Shown piece after piece: positions 16,300-57,371 of a DNA stretch of 64,000 bases. The position numbers were made by a program, and so were the translations under genes. Source of the stretch: Naegleria gruberi (Eukaryota); the NCBI GenBank assembly GCA_000004985.1, contig GG738855.1; one strand, given 5' to 3'. Position 1 is the first letter of the stretch. Every line of letters starts with the position of its first letter. The notes under the pieces were generated by a model, which saw nothing but the letters and a program-made list of their open reading frames with translations, searched no databases and was not told where the DNA came from.

Positions 16300-16440
16300 A
16301 TTATTGATGTATGATTCAAAATTGTAAATAAAAATTGTATATTAGTTCAACCTATTCAAGTACTTCCTCGTTCAAAACCACCAATCATGGTTTTGGCTTA
16401 TCAAAAATCATTTGCTTAGTTAATCAATTAAGGATCACAT

Positions 16441-16514
16441 GCAGCGATAGATCAGTTGGTTAGATCGTAAGCCTAACACGCTTAAGGTCGCGGGTTCAAG
16501 CCCCGCTCGCTGTA
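16441..16514 (+). tRNA. tRNA-Val (anticodon AAC)
   Basis: 74-nt cloverleaf. Acceptor stem GCAGCGA/TCGCTGT (one G-U pair). D arm GATC-AGTTGGTTA-GATC. Anticodon stem TAAGC/GCTTA with loop CTAACAC (anticodon AAC). Variable loop AGGTC. T arm GCGGG-TTCAAGC-CCCGC (B box GGTTCAAGCCC). Discriminator A. Followed by a TTTT Pol III terminator at ~16517. Confidence 0.9.
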
Positions 16515-16522
16515 ACTTTTAA
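16515..16522 (+). terminator. Pol III oligo-T terminator downstream of tRNA-Val
   Basis: ..gctgtaaCTTTTaagg immediately 3' of the tRNA. Confidence 0.5.
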
Positions 16523-31796: not shown

Positions 31797-34700
31797 TCAG
31801 ATTGTTTGCAACTCTGAACTAGCACTAGGTGGAACAGAAATTTTCTTCTTCTTCACACAATAAACAATCAATCCAATCACAACCAACCCAAAAATCAGAA
31901 TTGGAATAATCAATGCCAATGCTACCAGAGCTACAAGTCCAATAACATTGTTTTGCTTGGTTAAACTAGTTTCTGCAAGAATTGAAGAATTTTCCATTAT
32001 TATTTGTGACGGTGAGGGTTGTGGATTAGTTGAGGTGTAAGTAATAAAAGAAATGGTTCTCCGAACTGTTTCGATCAGAGTAACATTTCTTGCAAATTGT
32101 GAACATTTACAATAATAGTTATTATTATTCACTGTTTCAATTAGGCATGAATCAACAGCACTATGGCACTCAATGTGTGATGATACTGTTTCATTCTTTC
32201 TTGTAGTTGAATTAATGAAAGTAGTAATAGTATGGGAGAGTGTTGTATTTTCAAAGTTGAATGAATAGGAAATAATTTTCTCATTTACAGAAGATTGTTG
32301 ATAGTAATTTTCACAAGATACCATAAATGGTAAACTTCTTATCGTTGTTTGCACTTCAGTATTATTATTAACTTTTTCATAATTTTCTATTTCATTATAT
32401 TTTGTATTATACTTTATAATTCTATTAAATATTTGTTGTCTAGTATTACCAAAATATTTAATCATTTGTTTTGGATATTTAACAAAGTTATTTTCAGAAT
32501 AATAAATTATTGAATTTGAAAATTCGGAAGGATACATTCTTGCAGAAAGGATTGAGTAAAAATTTGTGAGACTCATTATTTGAAAATGATTCTTCAAATT
32601 AATTATATTCAAATTAGTACTAATTTCAATAATTTCTTCCCAATTATCTAATTTCTTTCCATTATTTAATGAAATTCGACTGTTAATCATCATTTCTAAT
32701 ATGTTATTCATTATTTTTCCCAATTGATCTGCTAATTCCAAATAAGTTAATTTTAATATTTCTGTAATTCGGGTTTTAAATAATAAATATACAGAATTGT
32801 ACATTTCCTCATTAATTTCATCATAATTTTCAAAGAGATGATAAATAAAAGCCATTTCAAATGATAATTGATTTCCATTCATTTGGAATTCATTTCTATC
32901 CAACATTTCCTCAATTAGTAATTTAGAAGAATTCCATTTTTCACTTGAGACTTGAATCCATTCATTAAAACTCATACTACAATCACTCTTTTTGAATCCA
33001 TTTACGCATACACATGAGACAGTTTCTTCATTATAACTAGCTCCATTCGCACACATACCTCTTATAGCTCTTTTAGATCCTGAAATTTTCTTAACCATTG
33101 CTTCAGAAGTAATTGTACTGTAGCTGTAAACTATCTTTTTAGGATCGTTGGAAGAAAGGGTTTTATAAATGGCATCCCAAGAAGATTTCTTCTTTTTCAC
33201 GTCAGCGATGGTAGATGCTGGAGGAAGTAATAATGCTCTATTTAAGGTAACTTCTGATTTGGCGCCAGTTTGAATATTCTTATTTGAAATGTACAGTGTT
33301 ACGGTCTCATCATTGCCTGTATATGGCAGGGGTGTTTTAATGATTAAATTTCTTGTCTCTAAAAGTTGAATTTTCAAATTAGTTTTGAGATCTAAAAAAC
33401 TTAATTGTAAAATTTCAGTACTTGATTGTAGACAGCTTGAACATGAGATTGTAAATACTGTATCAATGGCGTATCCAATTGAAGGTGTTATTGAACATAC
33501 ACAAGATGTGGGATTATCTGCAATCTTGAATTCGTAATTATAAATAGCAAAACTATTTACAGATCTAATTGCCATAAATGTGATTACATGTGATGTTGTT
33601 GTAGAGAGTGTGGAAAGGTCTAATAATATTTTGTTCGCATTGACAATATCAGATCCTGGTAATAATATGGAAGATGGTATTGTTTTGTTATCTATTTTCC
33701 ATTCTCTGACCATTAAATAATTAACGTCTTCAGCTTGATTATCTAATTCAACAAGTAGTTGAATTTGTAATATATCTGATGATATAAATACTGTTTTTTG
33801 CGGGTACATTGATAAAACTGTAATGATTGGTACGCTTTCTTGAATTGGAAAGTTAATCAGTATATTTCCAGTCCTATTATTTATGGCTAATCTTAATTCA
33901 ATTGATTCATGAGTTGAAGTTATTGTAAAATTATGTAATTTCATCAGAGCACTGGTATTTAATTGTTTAGTTAAAGATTCATCACATAGATTTTTACCAT
34001 TAAGACAATTCCATTTCCATTCATACTTATCAATTAAATTACTTTTATCCATTGGATCAGTTTCTATATTAATCATAACTTGATTTGATGTCAATGATGA
34101 TTGTAAAAGTATGATATTATAATCTTCATCAGTAGTTATTATTTTAATTTGCTTTGTTGAAGTAAAATTATTAAAATTCAATTTCAATTCGAATACATAT
34201 TCTCCTTTCAATAAATTATTTGATTGAATTAGTAAATCGTAATTTGATAGTGTTTCAACATTTAGAGTGTATCCTAGGATTTGTTTCCATTCTATATCAA
34301 ACTTTGAAATATCGTCTTCATGACATTCATTAAACGTTATATATTTTGAAATGTAGCGAGGTAATCTTTCCATATTTGTGTAAATCGTTTCAGAGTTTGA
34401 TATTTCTAAAATGGGAATACATGTTAATATTTCACATTCAATTCCACTCACAATATAATTCCCAATAGTAGTATTACATTTACAGTTATCGGTTGATTCA
34501 CAAATTCCTCTTCCTGAACAAACAGTTGAGATATTTGAAATCCCAAAGCAATTAACTTTCTCTTCTTTAAATTCACATCTGTTTCCATAAAATCCTTCTC
34601 TACATTGACATTTATCGAAACCAGTACATATTCCTCCTCCAGAGCAAACATTTGAATCGTTCTGAGAAATTCCAAAACACATCAAAAATTCACATACAGA

Positions 34701-37700
34701 TCCCGAATGCAAATCAAGATAACACTCGCATAAATCTGGAGCAATACATAGGCCATTGGATGAGCATGATGATTCGTTTAGATAATGAACTCCAAAGCAC
34801 TCGAATTCCTCACAAGATTCTCCATAGTAACCATCCAAACATTCACATTCAGACGAATTTTGAGGATTGATGAGGGAATTGCTTGGGCATTCCTTTGATA
34901 TCTTTTTAATGGTTATTTCGTTATTCGTATCAATGAAATAAACATCATCACCAACTGATTTCATAAATGTTGGTGAAACACTATTGAAAAAATTGGTTCC
35001 AAGAGCAACTGTTGTTATGTTACCAGATTTAGAATCCACTTTTCTAATTCTGTCATACCCATCTGAAATGAAAATATCCCCATTCGATACCATCACTGCA
35101 CTTATTGGCATATTTAACTTAGCTTTAGTTGCTGGACCATCGTCACCACTATTGCCTGCTTCTCCATTTCCAGCAATAGCTGAAACATTCCCATACCTAT
35201 CAATGATATAGATAGTACAACCAACAGAATCTGTTACGAGATAATTCTCTCCGTTAACAATAACCATGTCTGATACTCCAGAAAAATCAAAATCCAAAGA
35301 ATTTTTCTCTTTCGCAGAGTTTAGTCCAAGCATTGTGCTTCCTGCGAATTGATGAATGATTTGATTCTTATCAATTCTTCTAATATCCCATCTTTCTGTT
35401 ACAAATACATCTCGATTCTTATCTATTTCAATAGTTTCAATATAAATGGAGCTATTTAAAGCCAACCCTTCATTTCCAATTCCACCTGCAATGGTTGTAA
35501 TGATTCCAGTATTGATATCAATTTTTCTTATTCTTTTCAATTCAGAAATTAGTAAGTCACCATTAGGTTGTACATTTAAATCCATTGGCACATCAAGACA
35601 TGCATTAATTGCCAATTTTCCATCTCCTTTATATCCGTTCTGTCCACAACCAGCTACATGATAAATCTTTTCTCCAATTTTAAACTTTCTCACAGCAGGA
35701 TACCCACTGTCAATGAAATAAATTGTATCATTAAATATTGCTATGGAAGTTGGTCCATTCATCTGGGCCTTAGTTGCTAAACCTCCATCACCTGAATGGC
35801 CAAATTTTCCTGTTCCTGCTATTGTTGTAATGTTACCAGAAATGGGATCGACTGATCTTATTCTGTGATTTTTGGTGTCAGCAATTAATAGAGAATTGTT
35901 TTTTGTTATTTTGATGCCAACTGGTAAATTAAGCCAAGTAGAATTGGCTGGTACATTATCTTTCTTAAAACCAGCTGAATTGTAAACCCCAGCATAATTT
36001 GTCACATTCCCAATTCTATTATCTATAAAAATGGTATCTATTTTATAGATAATAGAATTAGAAGTAGATAATACGTAGATAAAATTACCATCACTTGAAA
36101 TTGTGATGTAAGTTGGGTTTGGAATTGAAACCAACGTTGAAACAATTCCACTCAATGAATTAACCTTTCTAATCTTGTTATTAGATAATTCACAAATAAA
36201 GAAATCTCCATTAATTGGAGAAACTTCCATCTTGTACACTCCTTTAAATGAAGTATTCGATCGATGATATCCATCTGGAGTAATAGTACCATCTTTTCCA
36301 GAAAAGAGTGTAATTATTCCATTAGTATCAATTTTTCTTATTGATGATAATGTTGGATAGTACGCATAATCACTAATTTGAGTTACATAAATATCACCCG
36401 TTGAATGGTCAACTGTTAATCCGTTTGCATTTGGTAAGAGTGAAATATTGGCGTAATAGTCATTTCCAGAAAATACATTCCTAGTTCCAGCAATTGTTGT
36501 CAACTGAGTAAAATTGTTCGTAATCTTTCTCAAATAGTAGTTGGTATCACAAAAATACAAGTTGTCTGCGCCACCATTATACACACATGCAGGTGAAACT
36601 CTCGTTTCAGAAGTGATTAAACCATCTTGAGAATAACCATCAACTCCAACCTGACCAACTATGGTAGAAATGATACCACTCGAATCAATATATCTGAGCG
36701 CCTTGTCGTCAGACAGCAACATGGTATTATTGTGTATTGAAATCGATCTCACATGCTTAAAACTTGCTAATTTTGCGTTCAATCCATCTCCTGAATAGGA
36801 TCCCAAGTTTTTAAATACAGTGCTGACAATACCATTGGTATCTATTTTTCTTATTAAAGTGCCATACCTATCAATGATATAAATCTCATCAGTATCCTCA
36901 TTGACATGTACATAAACAGGATAATTAAATTCAGCCAAAAGTGCATAGTTTCCATCCCCAGAATTTCCAGGTGTTCCAATACCTCCCAAAGTGGAAATCA
37001 TAGCAGTGTCATGATAAATTATTCTAATTCTATTATTATTGGTATCAGCAAATATGAAATCATTTTTAGAATTAAATCTTCCATGTGTAGGTGAGTTCAG
37101 CAGTGCATTAATTGCCAATCCCCCATCTCCACCATATCCAAGAGTTCTATTTCCTGCTATTGTTACAATTATTCCATTAGTTAGTATCTTTCTAATTCGG
37201 TTGTTGGAATTGTCCAAAATGAATATTTCACCACTGCTCGAAATTGCAACTCCTTTTGGTGAATATAATTTTGCATTAATAGCCAATTCACCATCTCCTA
37301 TAAAACCATTTGAAATTGATCCAGCAACCGTGATAAGTGTTCCATTAGTCAATATTTTTCTAATTCTATTGTCGTTTGTGAAATATAAATCCCCTTCTTT
37401 GGAAAATATCAAGTCACCATCAGATTTAATAGATACATCAACTGCCAATCCATCCCCAGTTGATCCACCAGATGGTTTTCCAGCAATAACCTTAACCCGT
37501 CCATTAGTAGTTATCTTTTTGATTTGATTACTATCAAAAAAGAACAATTCTCCACTAATTGGATGTCTGGCTATACATTTAGGAGATGATAATGCTGTTT
37601 GAATTGCAATTGATGAAGTTGGATCATATTTGAGAGAGGCAGAATTGACTCCAGCAATGCTCTTGATACTATTTTTCTTTTTATCAAACATTCTAATCAT

Positions 37701-37949
37701 TTTGGTATCGGATATGAATATTTTCTCACCAGCTGTGATAATTGAGATGGGACTTTTCACTCCAATCATAACTCCTTCAGCATATTGATTACCTCCAGCC
37801 ACTTTTTTTATTAAGGTTGGTATCGGAAATGCCTCAATTAACACCCCTTTCTCACATGGTGATTGTAAGAGTAATAAAAGAATGGGAAGAAGAACAATTA
37901 GTACTGCCTTGTGCATGTGGAGGAAAATCTTTGCAACCAATCTTGACAT
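31797..37949 (-). CDS. Large type-I membrane protein of about 2050 aa. Domain order: signal peptide, many NHL (six-bladed beta-propeller) repeats, EGF-like repeats, long beta/Ig-like region, single C-terminal TM, short cytoplasmic tail. Teneurin/tenascin-like architecture.
   Basis: ORF 31797..37976. The first true ATG is ~37949 (MSRLVAKIFLHMHKAVLIVLLPILLLLLQSPCEKG = signal peptide). Upstream 'M' codons are TTG. Recurrent ..NNRIRKI(L/D)TNG../..DSGN.RI.. NHL signatures for about 1000 aa. Cys-rich EGF block (CECLDGYYGESCEEFECFG...CQCREGFYGNRCE...). TM segment VIGLVALVALALIIPILIFGLVVIGLIVYCV followed by KKKKISVPP... Confidence 0.75.
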   Translation of the reverse strand: MSRLVAKIFLHMHKAVLIVLLPILLLLLQSPCEKGVLIEAFPIPTLIKKVAGGNQYAEGVMIGVKSPISIITAGEKIFISDTKMIRMFDKKKNSIKSIAGVNSASLKYDPTSSIAIQTALSSPKCIARHPISGELFFFDSNQIKKITTNGRVKVIAGKPSGGSTGDGLAVDVSIKSDGDLIFSKEGDLYFTNDNRIRKILTNGTLITVAGSISNGFIGDGELAINAKLYSPKGVAISSSGEIFILDNSNNRIRKILTNGIIVTIAGNRTLGYGGDGGLAINALLNSPTHGRFNSKNDFIFADTNNNRIRIIYHDTAMISTLGGIGTPGNSGDGNYALLAEFNYPVYVHVNEDTDEIYIIDRYGTLIRKIDTNGIVSTVFKNLGSYSGDGLNAKLASFKHVRSISIHNNTMLLSDDKALRYIDSSGIISTIVGQVGVDGYSQDGLITSETRVSPACVYNGGADNLYFCDTNYYLRKITNNFTQLTTIAGTRNVFSGNDYYANISLLPNANGLTVDHSTGDIYVTQISDYAYYPTLSSIRKIDTNGIITLFSGKDGTITPDGYHRSNTSFKGVYKMEVSPINGDFFICELSNNKIRKVNSLSGIVSTLVSIPNPTYITISSDGNFIYVLSTSNSIIYKIDTIFIDNRIGNVTNYAGVYNSAGFKKDNVPANSTWLNLPVGIKITKNNSLLIADTKNHRIRSVDPISGNITTIAGTGKFGHSGDGGLATKAQMNGPTSIAIFNDTIYFIDSGYPAVRKFKIGEKIYHVAGCGQNGYKGDGKLAINACLDVPMDLNVQPNGDLLISELKRIRKIDINTGIITTIAGGIGNEGLALNSSIYIETIEIDKNRDVFVTERWDIRRIDKNQIIHQFAGSTMLGLNSAKEKNSLDFDFSGVSDMVIVNGENYLVTDSVGCTIYIIDRYGNVSAIAGNGEAGNSGDDGPATKAKLNMPISAVMVSNGDIFISDGYDRIRKVDSKSGNITTVALGTNFFNSVSPTFMKSVGDDVYFIDTNNEITIKKISKECPSNSLINPQNSSECECLDGYYGESCEEFECFGVHYLNESSCSSNGLCIAPDLCECYLDLHSGSVCEFLMCFGISQNDSNVCSGGGICTGFDKCQCREGFYGNRCEFKEEKVNCFGISNISTVCSGRGICESTDNCKCNTTIGNYIVSGIECEILTCIPILEISNSETIYTNMERLPRYISKYITFNECHEDDISKFDIEWKQILGYTLNVETLSNYDLLIQSNNLLKGEYVFELKLNFNNFTSTKQIKIITTDEDYNIILLQSSLTSNQVMINIETDPMDKSNLIDKYEWKWNCLNGKNLCDESLTKQLNTSALMKLHNFTITSTHESIELRLAINNRTGNILINFPIQESVPIITVLSMYPQKTVFISSDILQIQLLVELDNQAEDVNYLMVREWKIDNKTIPSSILLPGSDIVNANKILLDLSTLSTTTSHVITFMAIRSVNSFAIYNYEFKIADNPTSCVCSITPSIGYAIDTVFTISCSSCLQSSTEILQLSFLDLKTNLKIQLLETRNLIIKTPLPYTGNDETVTLYISNKNIQTGAKSEVTLNRALLLPPASTIADVKKKKSSWDAIYKTLSSNDPKKIVYSYSTITSEAMVKKISGSKRAIRGMCANGASYNEETVSCVCVNGFKKSDCSMSFNEWIQVSSEKWNSSKLLIEEMLDRNEFQMNGNQLSFEMAFIYHLFENYDEINEEMYNSVYLLFKTRITEILKLTYLELADQLGKIMNNILEMMINSRISLNNGKKLDNWEEIIEISTNLNIINLKNHFQIMSLTNFYSILSARMYPSEFSNSIIYYSENNFVKYPKQMIKYFGNTRQQIFNRIIKYNTKYNEIENYEKVNNNTEVQTTIRSLPFMVSCENYYQQSSVNEKIISYSFNFENTTLSHTITTFINSTTRKNETVSSHIECHSAVDSCLIETVNNNNYYCKCSQFARNVTLIETVRRTISFITYTSTNPQPSPSQIIMENSSILAETSLTKQNNVIGLVALVALALIIPILIFGLVVIGLIVYCVKKKKISVPPSASSELQTI

Positions 37950-38196
37950 TTTTTTTTCGCATGAACTTTGATCCAAATAAGGAAAGCGTAAAATCTGATT
38001 AATTAACTCTAAAGTTTCGTTTTTTCATTTTAATAAGAATCTTCAAGGGAGATTTCGATTACTCCAACATCAATGTAGTTGCTCAACTCTAAATTAATTG
38101 TAATTTGATTGTCTGCACTCGGATCCACAATATTTTTCGGATAATCTTCAAAGTCCTTAACGTACTCGTAAGCTAATCGTAAATACTCTGAAACGT

Positions 38197-39744
38197 TCAC
38201 TGTGAGAATTGAATCCCAATTAATAACTCCTCCTCTGGTGCATTTGTTGATTCTGTTGCTGCAGTGAGATTACTAATGGGATTTTCCTCATTTGGCAAGT
38301 TGGTAGCTAGTGTAATATTTTCATTGTTAGGTTCGTTAATGGATTGGTTGACTTCTGAATCATCTTCCTTTTTTTGCTTATTTGCGGAAGATTTATCATT
38401 ATTCTTTCTCTTCTTATGGAGTCTGGTTTTGAGATGCTTTTTGTATTCTGTGTAGCCAACATGAGTACTTCCACATTTTTCACAGAGATATGTTTTGGAT
38501 TCATCTCCAGGATGGTTTGGATTCTTCTCGTATGGTTTTTCAACACAATAGTTATCTTTCAAGTGTTGAGGGATTTCTTGGCCACCCAAAAAGTGTGTGG
38601 TAATTTCTTGAGCACTTTGAATAATATCAGTGGGTGATGAGGCAGAAATGTCAAACTTGAACAATTTACCACTAGAGACGAGAGGCAATTTAGCACTTGC
38701 CCAAGAGGATCTATACCATGTTTCTTGCTTCTTGGCATACTTAAATGTACTGTTAATGAGAGCTTCTAAACATTGCTTTTTGAGAGCTTGCTTTTTCTTA
38801 ACAATAGCCTCATCAGAGGTGTTTACATCCTCCAAATCATTAATTTCCTCCAGATATTTTAGATAGGGTAAAAATTCCTTATATCCAATTGATTGTAGTA
38901 CACCATGCTCAAACGACAAGCTCAGTGACTCCTTATTGTCGATTAAATATTTGTGATATTTAACAACTTCGTCTAACAGACCATTATCCATCATTTGAAC
39001 AGCTCTGTCCTCGATTCTCTTTCTCAGAACTCCTCGATTATCACATGCAAGATAAAAGAATAGGCAGTCATATTTAAGCGTTCTCTGCTTGTCTTGCTTG
39101 GATTCTAATACTTCAGTAAAAACCTGTTGATTATTTTCAAAGAGTAGAATTCTCTTTTTAATCTTTCTAATATCATTAGGATGGATTAACTTGGCAGATT
39201 CTGGATCTATTTCCTTCAATCTTTCATACGTATAATTTTTCATATCTTCTTCATCCTCTTTGGTTTCATTGTACTGTCCACCATTACTATCCTCTGCCTT
39301 TCCAATCAAGTACTGGTCAAAAATCACCGATTGTATATAATAATTAGTTCCTCCACAAATAATAGGAACATTTCCCTTCAAGAATAATTCATTTTCAAAT
39401 AACTCATGACAATCCTTTTGATAATTTAAAACTGTATAAAGTTCAGATCTGTCCGAGACTACTCCTGCTTTTTCTCCAACAAAATAATGTTTAACTTGTT
39501 CCATTTCCGAAGGAGAAGGCTTGTTAGTTGTAATTGGCAGTCCTTCATAAATTTGCATCACATCTGCATTAATAATTGAAGCAGATTTCCAAAATGATAA
39601 TTGTTCCTTCTCTTTAATATATTTTGCCAAAGCAAAGGCCAATGCAGATTTTCCCACTCCTGTACTTCCAGCACAAACAATAATTTTCGGAAGTGTATTT
39701 TTGTTATTGGAGGTCACATCGATTGTAGAGTTGTCTTGTTGCAT
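38197..39744 (-). CDS. tRNA dimethylallyltransferase (tRNA isopentenyltransferase, MiaA/Mod5/TRIT1 homolog) with C-terminal C2H2 matrin-type zinc finger.
   Basis: ATG at 39742-39744. P-loop IIVCAGSTGVGKSALAFALA. MQIYEGLPITTNKPS. Conserved central core. C-terminal ..YLCEKCGSTHVGYTEYKKHLKTRLHKKRK zinc finger, as in eukaryotic Mod5/TRIT1. Confidence 0.8.
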   Translation of the reverse strand: MQQDNSTIDVTSNNKNTLPKIIVCAGSTGVGKSALAFALAKYIKEKEQLSFWKSASIINADVMQIYEGLPITTNKPSPSEMEQVKHYFVGEKAGVVSDRSELYTVLNYQKDCHELFENELFLKGNVPIICGGTNYYIQSVIFDQYLIGKAEDSNGGQYNETKEDEEDMKNYTYERLKEIDPESAKLIHPNDIRKIKKRILLFENNQQVFTEVLESKQDKQRTLKYDCLFFYLACDNRGVLRKRIEDRAVQMMDNGLLDEVVKYHKYLIDNKESLSLSFEHGVLQSIGYKEFLPYLKYLEEINDLEDVNTSDEAIVKKKQALKKQCLEALINSTFKYAKKQETWYRSSWASAKLPLVSSGKLFKFDISASSPTDIIQSAQEITTHFLGGQEIPQHLKDNYCVEKPYEKNPNHPGDESKTYLCEKCGSTHVGYTEYKKHLKTRLHKKRKNNDKSSANKQKKEDDSEVNQSINEPNNENITLATNLPNEENPISNLTAATESTNAPEEELLIGIQFSQ

Positions 39745-39989: not shown

Positions 39990-41040
39990 ATGGGTCAAGC
40001 AAGTACACAAGAAAAGGGAACCAAAAGTTCTATGATGGATGCAGATGATGATGAAATTCTCAACAATAATAACAGCAAAACAACAGCAACAACTCATCAT
40101 CCAACTACATCATCAACCACCAGTGCTACAAGCAGCAATACAGTTGGCTCTAAAAATAAGATAAATGAATCAATACAAATAGTATCAATAGAAAAGGAAA
40201 ATGAGGAGGAGTATGATTATTTAGTGAAGGTTGTTCTTGTGGGAGATTATGGAGTCGGTAGGTTTTTAATAATATTCTAAATAGTAATTTAAATTTCTAT
40301 TATTTATTGATCATTCACCTGTGAATAATCTATCGGATACAAATTATAGGTAAAACTAGTTTGGCCAAGAAAATCAGTCAAAGAGGTTTCACAACACAAC
40401 ATCAACCTACTATTGGTATTGATTTTGTTGTTTGTACTCTTATTTTGAACACCAAGGAAACTGGTAAGTTACTGTTAATAATTTATTAACGATTTTCTCA
40501 TCAAATAATATCAGTTCGTCTCCAACTTTGGGATACTGCTGGTAAGTTATATGGAAATTTATTGTAATGATTAATTTCATAAATGCAGGTCAAGGTATGT
40601 TGTCATGATAAAATGTTGTAAAATTTAAACAATTGAAATTGAAAATTTAACCAAATTTAAACCAAATTCAAATTCTTACCTTAATAGAAAAATTCAAGGC
40701 TCTTGCTAGCTCATTTTTCCGTGGGGCTGATGGTATTTTTGTTATTGCTGACATTAGCGAAAAATCATCCTTTGACAGAGTTCCAGGATTTTTGGAAGAT
40801 GGTAAAAAGAATTGTACAGATGATGTGGAATTTATTTTCATTGCATCCAAGACAGATCTTCGTAGTATTGGATCATCAACTCAAGTATTGAGCGAAGAAG
40901 ATACTAAGAGAGAATTCAGAAAGTATGATTCACAAATTCCAATAATAGAAACAAGTGCCAAAGAGGACAAGAATGTTGAAAAGGCTCTCCTAACCATCAT
41001 TCAAAGAATTTACAACAAGAAGAAGGAAGCCAAGAAATAA
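39990..41040 (+). CDS. Rab-like small GTPase with S/T-rich N-terminal extension and no C-terminal prenylation cysteines. Five exons, approximately 39990..40257, 40350..40463, 40515..40541, 40589..40594 (6-nt micro-exon) and 40688..41040.
   Basis: Splicing joins ..LVGDYGVG|KTSLAKKISQRGFTTQHQPTIGIDFVV.., giving P-loop GDYGVGKTS. Then VRLQLWDTAG | Q | EKFKALASSFFRGADGIFVIADISEKSSFD (switch II WDTAGQE). Then ..FIASKTDL.. (NKxD-like) and ETSAKED (SAK). All donors are GTAAGT or GTATGT, and the phases sum to an intact 255-aa frame ending KKKEAKK*. Confidence 0.7.
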
Positions 41041-41187: not shown

Positions 41188-41670
41188 ATGCCACCAAAAC
41201 AATTCAAAAAATCATTTGCTGCACAAGGCAGACTTGAAAAAGAAAGAGAGGAAAGAAGTATCAGAGAACGTGAATCTCACGTTAAAGCTAAAACATATTT
41301 GGAACATTTAGCTGTGGATTATATTCTTAAAACTGTTGTTTTTGAAAATGTTGAACAGATACCACCACATTCCGAGATGAAGGATATTCTGTTATTGGCT
41401 TTGAAATCATCACTATCAAGACAACAAAGTGAAACCATCACAACATCAAACTCTACACCTAATACTATTTATTCCGAAATTGAAAGATACATTGATGATT
41501 ATACTGAATTTTTAACTTCAGTCTTACAGAAAGAAATTTCAAAAGCCAAGAAACCAAAACCAACCATTCAATTCGACATCAAACAAGTTAAACCATTATC
41601 CTCATCGAAAGCTAGTGAATTTTCAAACAATTTGGAAAAGTTCTCTGTTAGAAATTTAATTACCGAATAA
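41188..41670 (+). CDS. Hypothetical 160-aa protein (K/E-rich, no recognisable domain)
   Basis: Single ORF 41188..41670 lying between two supported genes. No motif recognised. Confidence 0.35.
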   Translation: MPPKQFKKSFAAQGRLEKEREERSIRERESHVKAKTYLEHLAVDYILKTVVFENVEQIPPHSEMKDILLLALKSSLSRQQSETITTSNSTPNTIYSEIERYIDDYTEFLTSVLQKEISKAKKPKPTIQFDIKQVKPLSSSKASEFSNNLEKFSVRNLITE

Positions 41671-57252: not shown

Positions 57253-57371
57253 GGCTACGGCCATATCACGATGAATGCACCTCATCCCGTCCGATTTGAG
57301 AAGTTAAGCATCGTAGAGCCACATCAGTACTGAGGTTGGAGACAACTTGGGAACCTGTGGTGCTGTAGTCT
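57253..57371 (+). rRNA. 5S ribosomal RNA gene (copy 1)
   Basis: ~119 nt GGCTACGGCCATATCACGATGAATGCACCTCATCCCGTCCGATTTGAGAAGTTAAGCATCGTAGAGCC...GGTGCTGTAGTCT. Termini pair as helix I (GGCTACGG/CTGTAGTC with two G-U pairs). Internal Pol III box A/IE/C region AAGTTAAGC. Followed by a TTTTTT terminator. Confidence 0.85.

Follow-up and report, generated by a model that had tools for sequence, protein, structure and literature searches.

The DNA stretch analysed here (the window) is 64,000 nucleotides (nt) of contig GG738855.1 from the Naegleria gruberi NEG-M assembly GCA_000004985.1, AT-rich in composition (31-37% G+C) and with short GT-AG introns. Its plus strand hosts a five-exon gene, located at 39990-41040, with a 768-nt coding sequence (CDS) encoding a 255-amino acid (aa) protein that includes the stretch WDTAGQEKF. 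The spliced product matches the deposited N. gruberi protein XP_002679989.1 (EFC47245.1, D2V7G1) with 100% identity over 100% of the length. The gene is known as RabX15, and has been listed among the divergent, lineage-specific Rab paralogues of Naegleria (Herman et al. 2021, PMC8296547, Table S8); in the same work the N. fowleri V212 counterpart is the re-predicted model RP13, which has no automatic g-number. The gene starts at the first in-frame ATG downstream of a stop (39990), and is split by four GT-AG introns all in phase 1, the first of which interrupts the P-loop at the end of exon 1, every internal exon being of the 1-1 type (Table 1). The fourth exon is made of six bases only. We regard this element, GTCAAG at 40589-40594, as a genuine coding microexon (probability about 85%), and conservation and deposited models suggest that it is constitutively included.

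Table 1. Coordinates of the RabX15 gene and of other features of the window (hyphens in codons and in GDYGV-G mark exon ends)
Feature	Position	Strand	Length (nt)	Description
Exon 1	39990..40257	+	268	Start codon, MGQAST, Ser/Thr/Asn-rich linker, start of the GTPase domain to GDYGV-G
Intron 1	40258..40349	+	92	GTAGGT...TAG, phase 1
Exon 2	40350..40463	+	114	GKTSLAKK...TIGIDF...LNTKET; remaining P-loop and switch I
Intron 2	40464..40514	+	51	GTAAGT...CAG, phase 1
Exon 3	40515..40541	+	27	(V)RLQLWDTA and base 1 of the Gly137 codon
Intron 3	40542..40588	+	47	GTAAGT...TGCAG, phase 1
Exon 4 (microexon GTCAAG)	40589..40594	+	6	Bases 2-3 of Gly137 (G-GT), Gln138 (CAA), base 1 of Glu139 (G-AA)
Intron 4	40595..40687	+	93	GTATGT...AATAG, phase 1
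Exon 5	40688..41040	+	353	Stop codon included (41038-41040); switch II (EKFKALASSFFRGADG), SKTD, ETSAK, Cys-free basic NKKKEAKK
G4 codons, Ser192-Lys-Thr-Asp195	40846..40857	+		Ser replaces the canonical Asn of NKxD
Transfer RNA (tRNA) isopentenyltransferase	38197-39744	-		515-aa single open reading frame (ORF); Pfam IPP transferase PF01715, E 2e-55
2059-aa ORF	31797-37976	-		Uninterrupted; repeated NHL-like ...RIRKI... units, Cys-rich EGF-like segments, C-terminal hydrophobic stretch
Downstream neighbour, 160-aa ORF	41188-41670	+		No Pfam match
Two 5S ribosomal RNA (rRNA) genes	57253-57371, 58982-59100	+		Rfam RF00001, 106.5 and 105.4 bits; about 1.7 kb apart
tRNA-Val (AAC)	16440-16516	+		ARAGORN and Rfam

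The letters at 40581-40600 read aaatgcag-GTCAAG-gtatgt (hyphens mark splice boundaries), and are part of the wider context ...ACTGCTG-gtaagtta...aaatgcag-GTCAAG-gtatgttg...cttaatag-AAAAATTC.... The hexamer is immediately adjoined by a canonical acceptor and a canonical donor, is bounded by phase 1 on both sides and keeps the frame. A preliminary description of the locus had proposed that a 6-nt exon with junctions 40541 to 40589 and 40594 to 40688 supplies the Gln of the DTAGQE motif. Coordinates and junctions proved exact, both by sequence and by splice model, and the exon is confirmed, as the model including it reproduces the deposited protein. The use of different splice sites giving a contiguous exon had been named there as a refutation. 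Every one- and two-intron GT..AG path between exons 3 and 5, through 40515-40760, was enumerated, and 4 single-intron and 33 two-intron paths were found to be open into the exon-5 frame. The sequence WDTAGQEKFKALASSFF is produced only by the path including the 6-nt exon; all other open paths lack Gly-Gln or EKFKALAS, or have switch II replaced, and a contiguous exon yielding the motif was not found among them.

An AG-GTCAAG-GT string could be fortuitous, and lie within a single 146-nt intron of a gene devoid of the Gly-Gln pair. The element is short, but nothing else favours this hypothesis. Strings fitting AG-GNCARG-GT were obtained in 22 of 200,000 shuffles of the 146-nt inter-exon stretch (about 1e-4), and in the 64-kb window, both strands included, the pattern occurs once, at 40587. 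Comparative data already refute a chance origin, the probability of which is negligible, as the orthologous position is conserved in three genomes.

Comparison with orthologues had been indicated in the preliminary description as a way to check the exon. The loci compared come from N. lovaniensis (L001), from N. fowleri ATCC 30894 (L003) and from two other assemblies of the N. fowleri type (L004, L005). GTCAAG, preceded by AG and followed by GT, was found in all of them, as at 3786-3791 in L001 and 2837-2842 in L003, and hexamer and splice dinucleotides are identical in the three species. Contig L002, environmental Naegleria DNA of 903 bp, stops short of exon 3, and is therefore uninformative on the microexon. 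Threading, that is the exact fit of a protein onto its own genomic DNA allowing only GT/GC..AG introns, requires the 6-nt exon, at the same codon and in the same phase, for the deposited N. gruberi, N. lovaniensis and N. fowleri proteins. Internal exons measure 114, 27 and 6 nt in N. gruberi, and 114, 27, 6 and 60 nt in the other two species. The introns flanking the microexon vary in length (upstream 47, 92 and 111 nt, downstream 93, 80 and 85 nt across the three species) and in sequence, their identity (0.41-0.60) being close to that of shuffled controls (0.36-0.51). Intron 3 and the orthologous introns share 0.41-0.46 of the residues, compared to 0.36-0.41 in shuffled controls. In the same comparison identity is 0.89-0.93 for exon 3 (89% for the N. 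gruberi exon against the orthologues), 1.00 for the microexon and 0.83-0.88 for the start of exon 5. An invariant hexamer with invariant splice dinucleotides, set amid diverged introns, therefore denotes a functional exon, and neither a chance string nor a modelling artefact. As judged from the aligned sequences, the microexon is real, under selection and annotated already.

A fifth intron, also in phase 1, interrupts the Ala159 codon (GIFVI/AD; slashes mark intron positions in proteins) in N. lovaniensis (L001 3932-4063) and N. fowleri (L003 2988-3121). N. gruberi lacks it at the equivalent window position (40747/40748), and by sequence comparison this intron is a gain or a loss within the genus.

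Searches among 1.84 billion representative proteins identified close relatives of RabX15 only in the Naegleria cluster. The next relative is the Willaertia magna protein KAL9647910.1 (P0158; L009 2501-3376). Among 383 Rab-like proteins collected, its best matches are the three RabX15 proteins (134-138 bits), the next scoring 87. The Willaertia gene is intronless, and hence either the Naegleria stem acquired the introns or Willaertia lost them. The encoded protein starts with MGQKGS, has no C-terminal Cys, and carries degenerate GTPase motifs (WDSTGYDK, ATKTDL, LSTEKD), Gln being replaced by Tyr. On these sequence grounds, RabX15 is restricted to Naegleria and, in a degenerate form, to the sister genus Willaertia. 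The microexon is not shared by the paralogue RabX16, as analysed in N. lovaniensis (L010 801-1910, P0265). This gene features exons of 22 and 23 nt, and an intron at FD/TAG, in phase 2. The catalytic Gln position of RabX16 is occupied by His in N. lovaniensis and N. fowleri, by Ser in Willaertia and by Gln in N. gruberi. The microexon is similarly absent from a Rab of Acrasis kona devoid of a C-terminal Cys (L011 801-1610, P0351). The Acrasis protein, 33% identical to RabX15, starts with MGNCAGQ, a possible myristoylation and palmitoylation site, and its gene has very short introns (34-46 nt), one of which lies one codon upstream of the Naegleria position (WDT/AG, phase 1).

Public CDS records have carried the microexon ever since the N. 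gruberi genome was released, and automatic prediction is documented to stumble on it. It is included in the models of XP_002679989.1, N. lovaniensis KAG2393705.1 and N. fowleri KAF0983705.1, the latter identical to CAG4710880.1. KAF0983705.1 belongs to the gene set of N. fowleri ATCC 30894, obtained by BRAKER1 with RNA sequencing data (PMC6831594). No text discussing this exon was found by a full-text literature search for Naegleria and microexon. A different picture is given by the Augustus model Nfowleri986_g1503.t1, built with transcript hints, which reads ...LNTKET-EKFKALASSFF..., and the N. gruberi model of JGI is named gw1.11.162.1 (Herman et al., PMC8296547, Table S5). In g1503.t1 exon 2 is joined to exon 5, and both the 27-nt and the 6-nt exons (33 nt) are dropped. 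We take the prefix gw to denote GeneWise, a homology-driven modeller able to force a conserved motif onto a gene. Finally, the Tyr found in place of Gln in Willaertia indicates that not all members of the family depend on this Gln. These data all weigh against a genuine microexon.

Taken together they could mean that the 6-nt exon was forced by modellers, and that the real messenger RNA joins exon 2 or exon 3 to exon 5, RabX15 being a pseudo-GTPase or a decaying gene. The homology-based origin suggested by the name of the N. gruberi model, the lack of the 33 nt in the transcript-hinted model and the tolerated loss of Gln in WDSTGYDK all fit this hypothesis, as does the birth-and-death evolution described for the divergent Rab-like genes of Naegleria (Herman et al. 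2021, PMC8296547). However, if the hexamer were unused, it would not have stayed identical, AG and GT included, in three species amid randomised intron sequences, the chance being about 1e-4 per species, and the 27-nt exon 3 omitted along with it is also kept (89-93%). Nor does the gene look decayed, since the GTPase domains of N. gruberi and N. lovaniensis are 86% identical and G1, G2, G3 and G5 are intact. Models including the exon come moreover from several annotation efforts. An artefact has accordingly only a slight chance of being the right explanation, and the omission in g1503.t1 was judged better explained by the failure of the gene finder on short exons.

RabX15 matches the Pfam Ras family (PF00071, E 3e-40). 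The nearest solved structures are Rab1A/B (E about 6e-35), followed by Rab43, Rab8A, Rab11A, Rab35 and Rab30; all top PDB matches are Rabs, and no Rab5 is found among the best 60 solved-structure matches. The Rab-like nature of the protein, stated in the preliminary description, is thus well founded. Identity to human RAB1A is 38%, and with the microexon in place the alignment runs free of gaps across DTAGQE; the domain of the full RAB1A sequence aligned here agrees with the PDB alignment. GDYGVGKT (G1), TIGIDF (switch I), WDTAGQE (G3) and ETSAK (G5) are canonical and align to Rab1A, and only the inclusion of the microexon provides a complete G3 and a complete Rab-type GTPase core. G4 departs from NKxD, as the protein has ASKTDL where Rab1A has GNKCDL, with Lys and Asp kept and Asn replaced. 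The orthologues read SKID (N. lovaniensis, N. fowleri) and TKTD (Willaertia), and the loss of Asn throughout the family may, to judge from the motif, lower or alter the affinity for guanine nucleotides. The motifs reportedly defined as RabF by Pereira-Leal and Seabra in 2000 are IGVDF, KLQIW, RFrsiT, YYRGA and LVYDIT. RabX15 matches three of them conservatively (IGIDF, RLQLW, FFRGA), and diverges in the other two (KFKALA, VIADIS). Overall, RabX15 resembles canonical Rab1/Ypt1 proteins in the EYDYL-K tract before the P-loop, TIGIDF, WDTAGQE and ETSAK, and differs from them for the lack of a prenylation motif, the SKTD G4, the divergent RabF3 and RabF5 and the long N-terminal extension.

Skipping of the microexon fuses G to AA, which restores a Glu codon and gives WDTA-EKF. 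The frame is kept, as the preliminary description maintained, but the loss is not confined to the catalytic Gln, since Gly137 of DxxG is removed together with Gln138. In Ras-type GTPases the DxxG glycine contacts the gamma-phosphate through its backbone amide, and ties the conformation of switch II to GTP. Because this glycine is lost along with Gln, a Gly-Gln deletion at the beta3/switch-II junction is expected to make the protein switch-dead, unstable or misfolded, and not a GTP-locked, hydrolysis-deficient form. The alternation of a GTPase-competent and a hydrolysis-deficient isoform by splicing, advanced as plausible in the same description, is therefore unsupported. In-frame skippability is not special to the microexon either, because every internal exon (114, 27 and 6 nt, plus 60 nt in two species) is of the phase 1-1 type. 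The perfect conservation of hexamer and splice sites in three species is what is expected of an obligatorily included exon.

Exon 4 might nonetheless be a regulated cassette, its inclusion giving an active GTPase and its skipping an in-frame regulatory isoform, either GTP-locked or dominant-negative. Frame preservation is compatible with such a role. The donor of exon 3 could pair with the acceptor of exon 5, as the fused intron (146 nt) is ordinary in size, the mean intron length being 203 bp for N. gruberi (PMC8296547, Table 2) and 126-144 bp for N. fowleri (PMC8296547). One automated model, g1503.t1, also leaves the region out; it omits however 33 nt, corresponding to both small exons, and not 6. 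The DTA-E product predicts the loss of gamma-phosphate sensing, beyond that of hydrolysis alone, and a phase common to all internal exons is not a designed property of this one. No variation affects the exon, its acceptor or its strong donor in the three species, and CTG-GTCAAG, the donor regenerated after the removal of intron 3, poorly matches the local consensus. For the latter reason recursive splicing, evoked by an exon starting with GT after AG, was also discarded.

At the transcript level, inclusion of the microexon is expected to generate the junction GGGATACTGCTG-GTCAAG-AAAAATTCAAGG, a complementary DNA retaining it reading ...GGGATACTGCTGGTCAAGAAAAATTCAAGG...; skipping of 6 nt would give GGGATACTGCTG-AAAAATTCAAGG, and skipping of 33 nt AAGGAAACTG-AAAAATTCAAGG. 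JGI metagenome and metatranscriptome contigs contain no match to the exact junction with 0-6 nt between exons 3 and 5, a range covering both inclusion and skipping, and no match to the fully degenerate back-translation of WDTAGQEKFKALASSFF. Similarly, no transcript-derived copy of the RabX15 protein was found in the protein database searched. The absence of the skip junction from the scanned contigs is a further point against a cassette exon, which we consider very unlikely. Speculative, and carrying very low odds, is that exon 4, or exons 3 and 4 together as in g1503.t1, are skipped in a regulated way, for example during amoeba-to-flagellate differentiation or encystment, and that a RabX15 without a functional DxxGQ titrates exchange factor or effectors. 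If true, splicing would here encode a dominant-negative small GTPase, in a protist probably devoid of the machinery that handles microexons in animals.

A constitutive microexon would be easily accommodated by the splicing of short introns. Introns 3 and 4, both of the GT-AG type, in phase 1 and short (47 and 93 nt), split the G3/switch-II motif one codon apart, leaving six bases in between. Each intron would be recognised and removed singly, by intron definition, and the length of the exon would not be limiting. Because of intron definition, recognition spanning an exon of 6 nt would be unnecessary, and the short size of Naegleria introns fits this type of splicing. Eighteen introns of Naegleria RabX15 and RabX16 genes define the donor consensus NNG-GTA(A/G/T)GT, which is fitted by the microexon donors AAG-GTATGT, AAG-GTAAGT and AAG-GTAGGA. 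Four of the six exon bases would double as splice consensus, namely G, the first base after the acceptor (+1), and AAG, which precedes the donor (-3 to -1); CAG in place of CAA would give the donor context AGG-GT. The invariance of two synonymous positions may be due to this dual role, two sites being too few to prove it. Introns 3 and 4, the acceptor and donor of which are 6 nt apart, would probably be removed one after the other, and either order would leave a normal substrate. The hypothesis that the flanking introns are ancient Rab introns was not supported by the two genes compared, one fern RabE-type gene and one chytrid Rab6 gene, which have no intron at DTA/G or Q/E; intron positions in Rab genes are known to be subfamily-specific (PMC3504004). 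The deposited Rab6B model of the chytrid Kappamyces (L008, P0092; 329 aa) resembles a fusion of two tandem Rab6 copies, and has a 10-residue insert, FVGFVLTLCS, between DTAG and QERF, which is probably an unspliced intron of 30 nt.

Ultra-short constitutive coding microexons (up to 15 nt) occur in plants and animals, and are often mis-annotated by automated gene finders. The RabX15 exon is similar to them in many respects, as a few coding bases lie between GT-AG introns, preserve the frame and are conserved amid diverging introns, and as it encodes part of a conserved motif and was missed by a gene finder (g1503.t1). It differs for the heterolobosean host, the short, intron-defined introns, the size, which is at the extreme low end, and the location within G3. 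Neuronal microexons of animals (3-27 nt; e.g. PMC12626424) are switch-like cassettes regulated by Srrm3/Srrm4, for which both inclusion and skipping are documented. The RabX15 exon belongs to the same size class, keeps the frame and is located where it could modulate function; in contrast to neuronal microexons, no skip junction was found for it in the contigs scanned, and its skipping would destroy DxxG.

The protein ends with ...IYNKKKEAKK. CC, CxC, CCxx and CaaX motifs are absent from the C-terminus, and no Cys is found in the last 10 residues of any of the four full-length proteins (three Naegleria, one Willaertia), to which the analysis was confined because the environmental contig is truncated. 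The lack of a prenylation signal and the Ser/Thr-rich N-terminal extension, which spans about 75 residues and is also rich in Asn, are the two features of the preliminary description that concern membrane attachment, and both hold. The start MGQASTQ (39990-40010), not mentioned in that description, fits at Gly2 the N-myristoylation pattern PROSITE PS00008, G-{EDRKHPFYW}-x(2)-[STAGCN]-{P}. All five available N-termini fit the pattern at Gly2, those of the three Naegleria species and of the environmental Naegleria contig (MGQAST, MGQHSS twice, and MGNAST) as well as that of Willaertia. N. gruberi and N. lovaniensis share 62% of residues 1-12, and 25% of residues 13-52. Among the 378 other Rab-like proteins collected, no more than 3 join a Met-Gly start fitting the pattern to a C-terminus free of Cys.

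N-terminal myristoylation, as predicted, would probably replace prenylation as the anchor, and the Ser/Thr-rich segment of about 75 residues would act as the usual C-terminal hypervariable linker, lipid and linker being both moved to the N-terminus. Speculatively, electrostatic attraction by the basic NKKKEAKK end of the protein might contribute to binding. Two points argue against such an anchor. The predicted myristoylation derives only from a short consensus, and neither a Cys nor a strong basic patch is found next to Gly2 as a second membrane signal, the first 20 residues of RabX15 being devoid of Cys. Plant ARA6/RABF1 and Rab5B of some alveolates are Rab5-related, dually acylated proteins that lost C-terminal geranylgeranylation (summarised in PMC5869587). 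RabX15 shares with them the Rab domain, the absence of a C-terminal Cys and a Met-Gly start fitting the N-myristoyltransferase consensus; in contrast to them it is not Rab5-like, has no Cys near Gly2, and hence no dual-acylation site, and features the linker of about 75 residues. RabX15 lies outside this group, and seems therefore to have reached the same solution independently. Both aspects of the gene belong to known kinds, very short coding microexons on one side and Rabs switched to N-terminal acylation on the other.

The tRNA isopentenyltransferase ORF, located upstream, is transcribed divergently from RabX15, a 245-bp spacer separating the two. An IPP transferase neighbour is found also on the environmental Naegleria contig, whereas Endonuclease V is located upstream in N. 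lovaniensis and N. fowleri instead. By its sequence, the product of the 2059-aa ORF looks like a large surface protein. The other features of the window are listed in Table 1.

The RabX15 microexon leaves current understanding as it is, since public CDS records already include it and the splicing switch is unsupported. It is a clean, verifiable case, in a free-living and deep-branching protist, of a 6-nt exon without which a catalytic motif would be incomplete, and indicates that intron-defined splicing based on short introns copes with exons far below the size suited to exon definition. It also illustrates why the small GTPase models produced automatically for Naegleria had to be repaired by hand, and is a useful test for gene finders and read aligners designed to handle microexons. 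More is to be learned from the protein. With RabX15, C-terminal prenylation appears to have been exchanged once more, and independently, for N-terminal acylation, which bears on the evolution of GTPase anchors.

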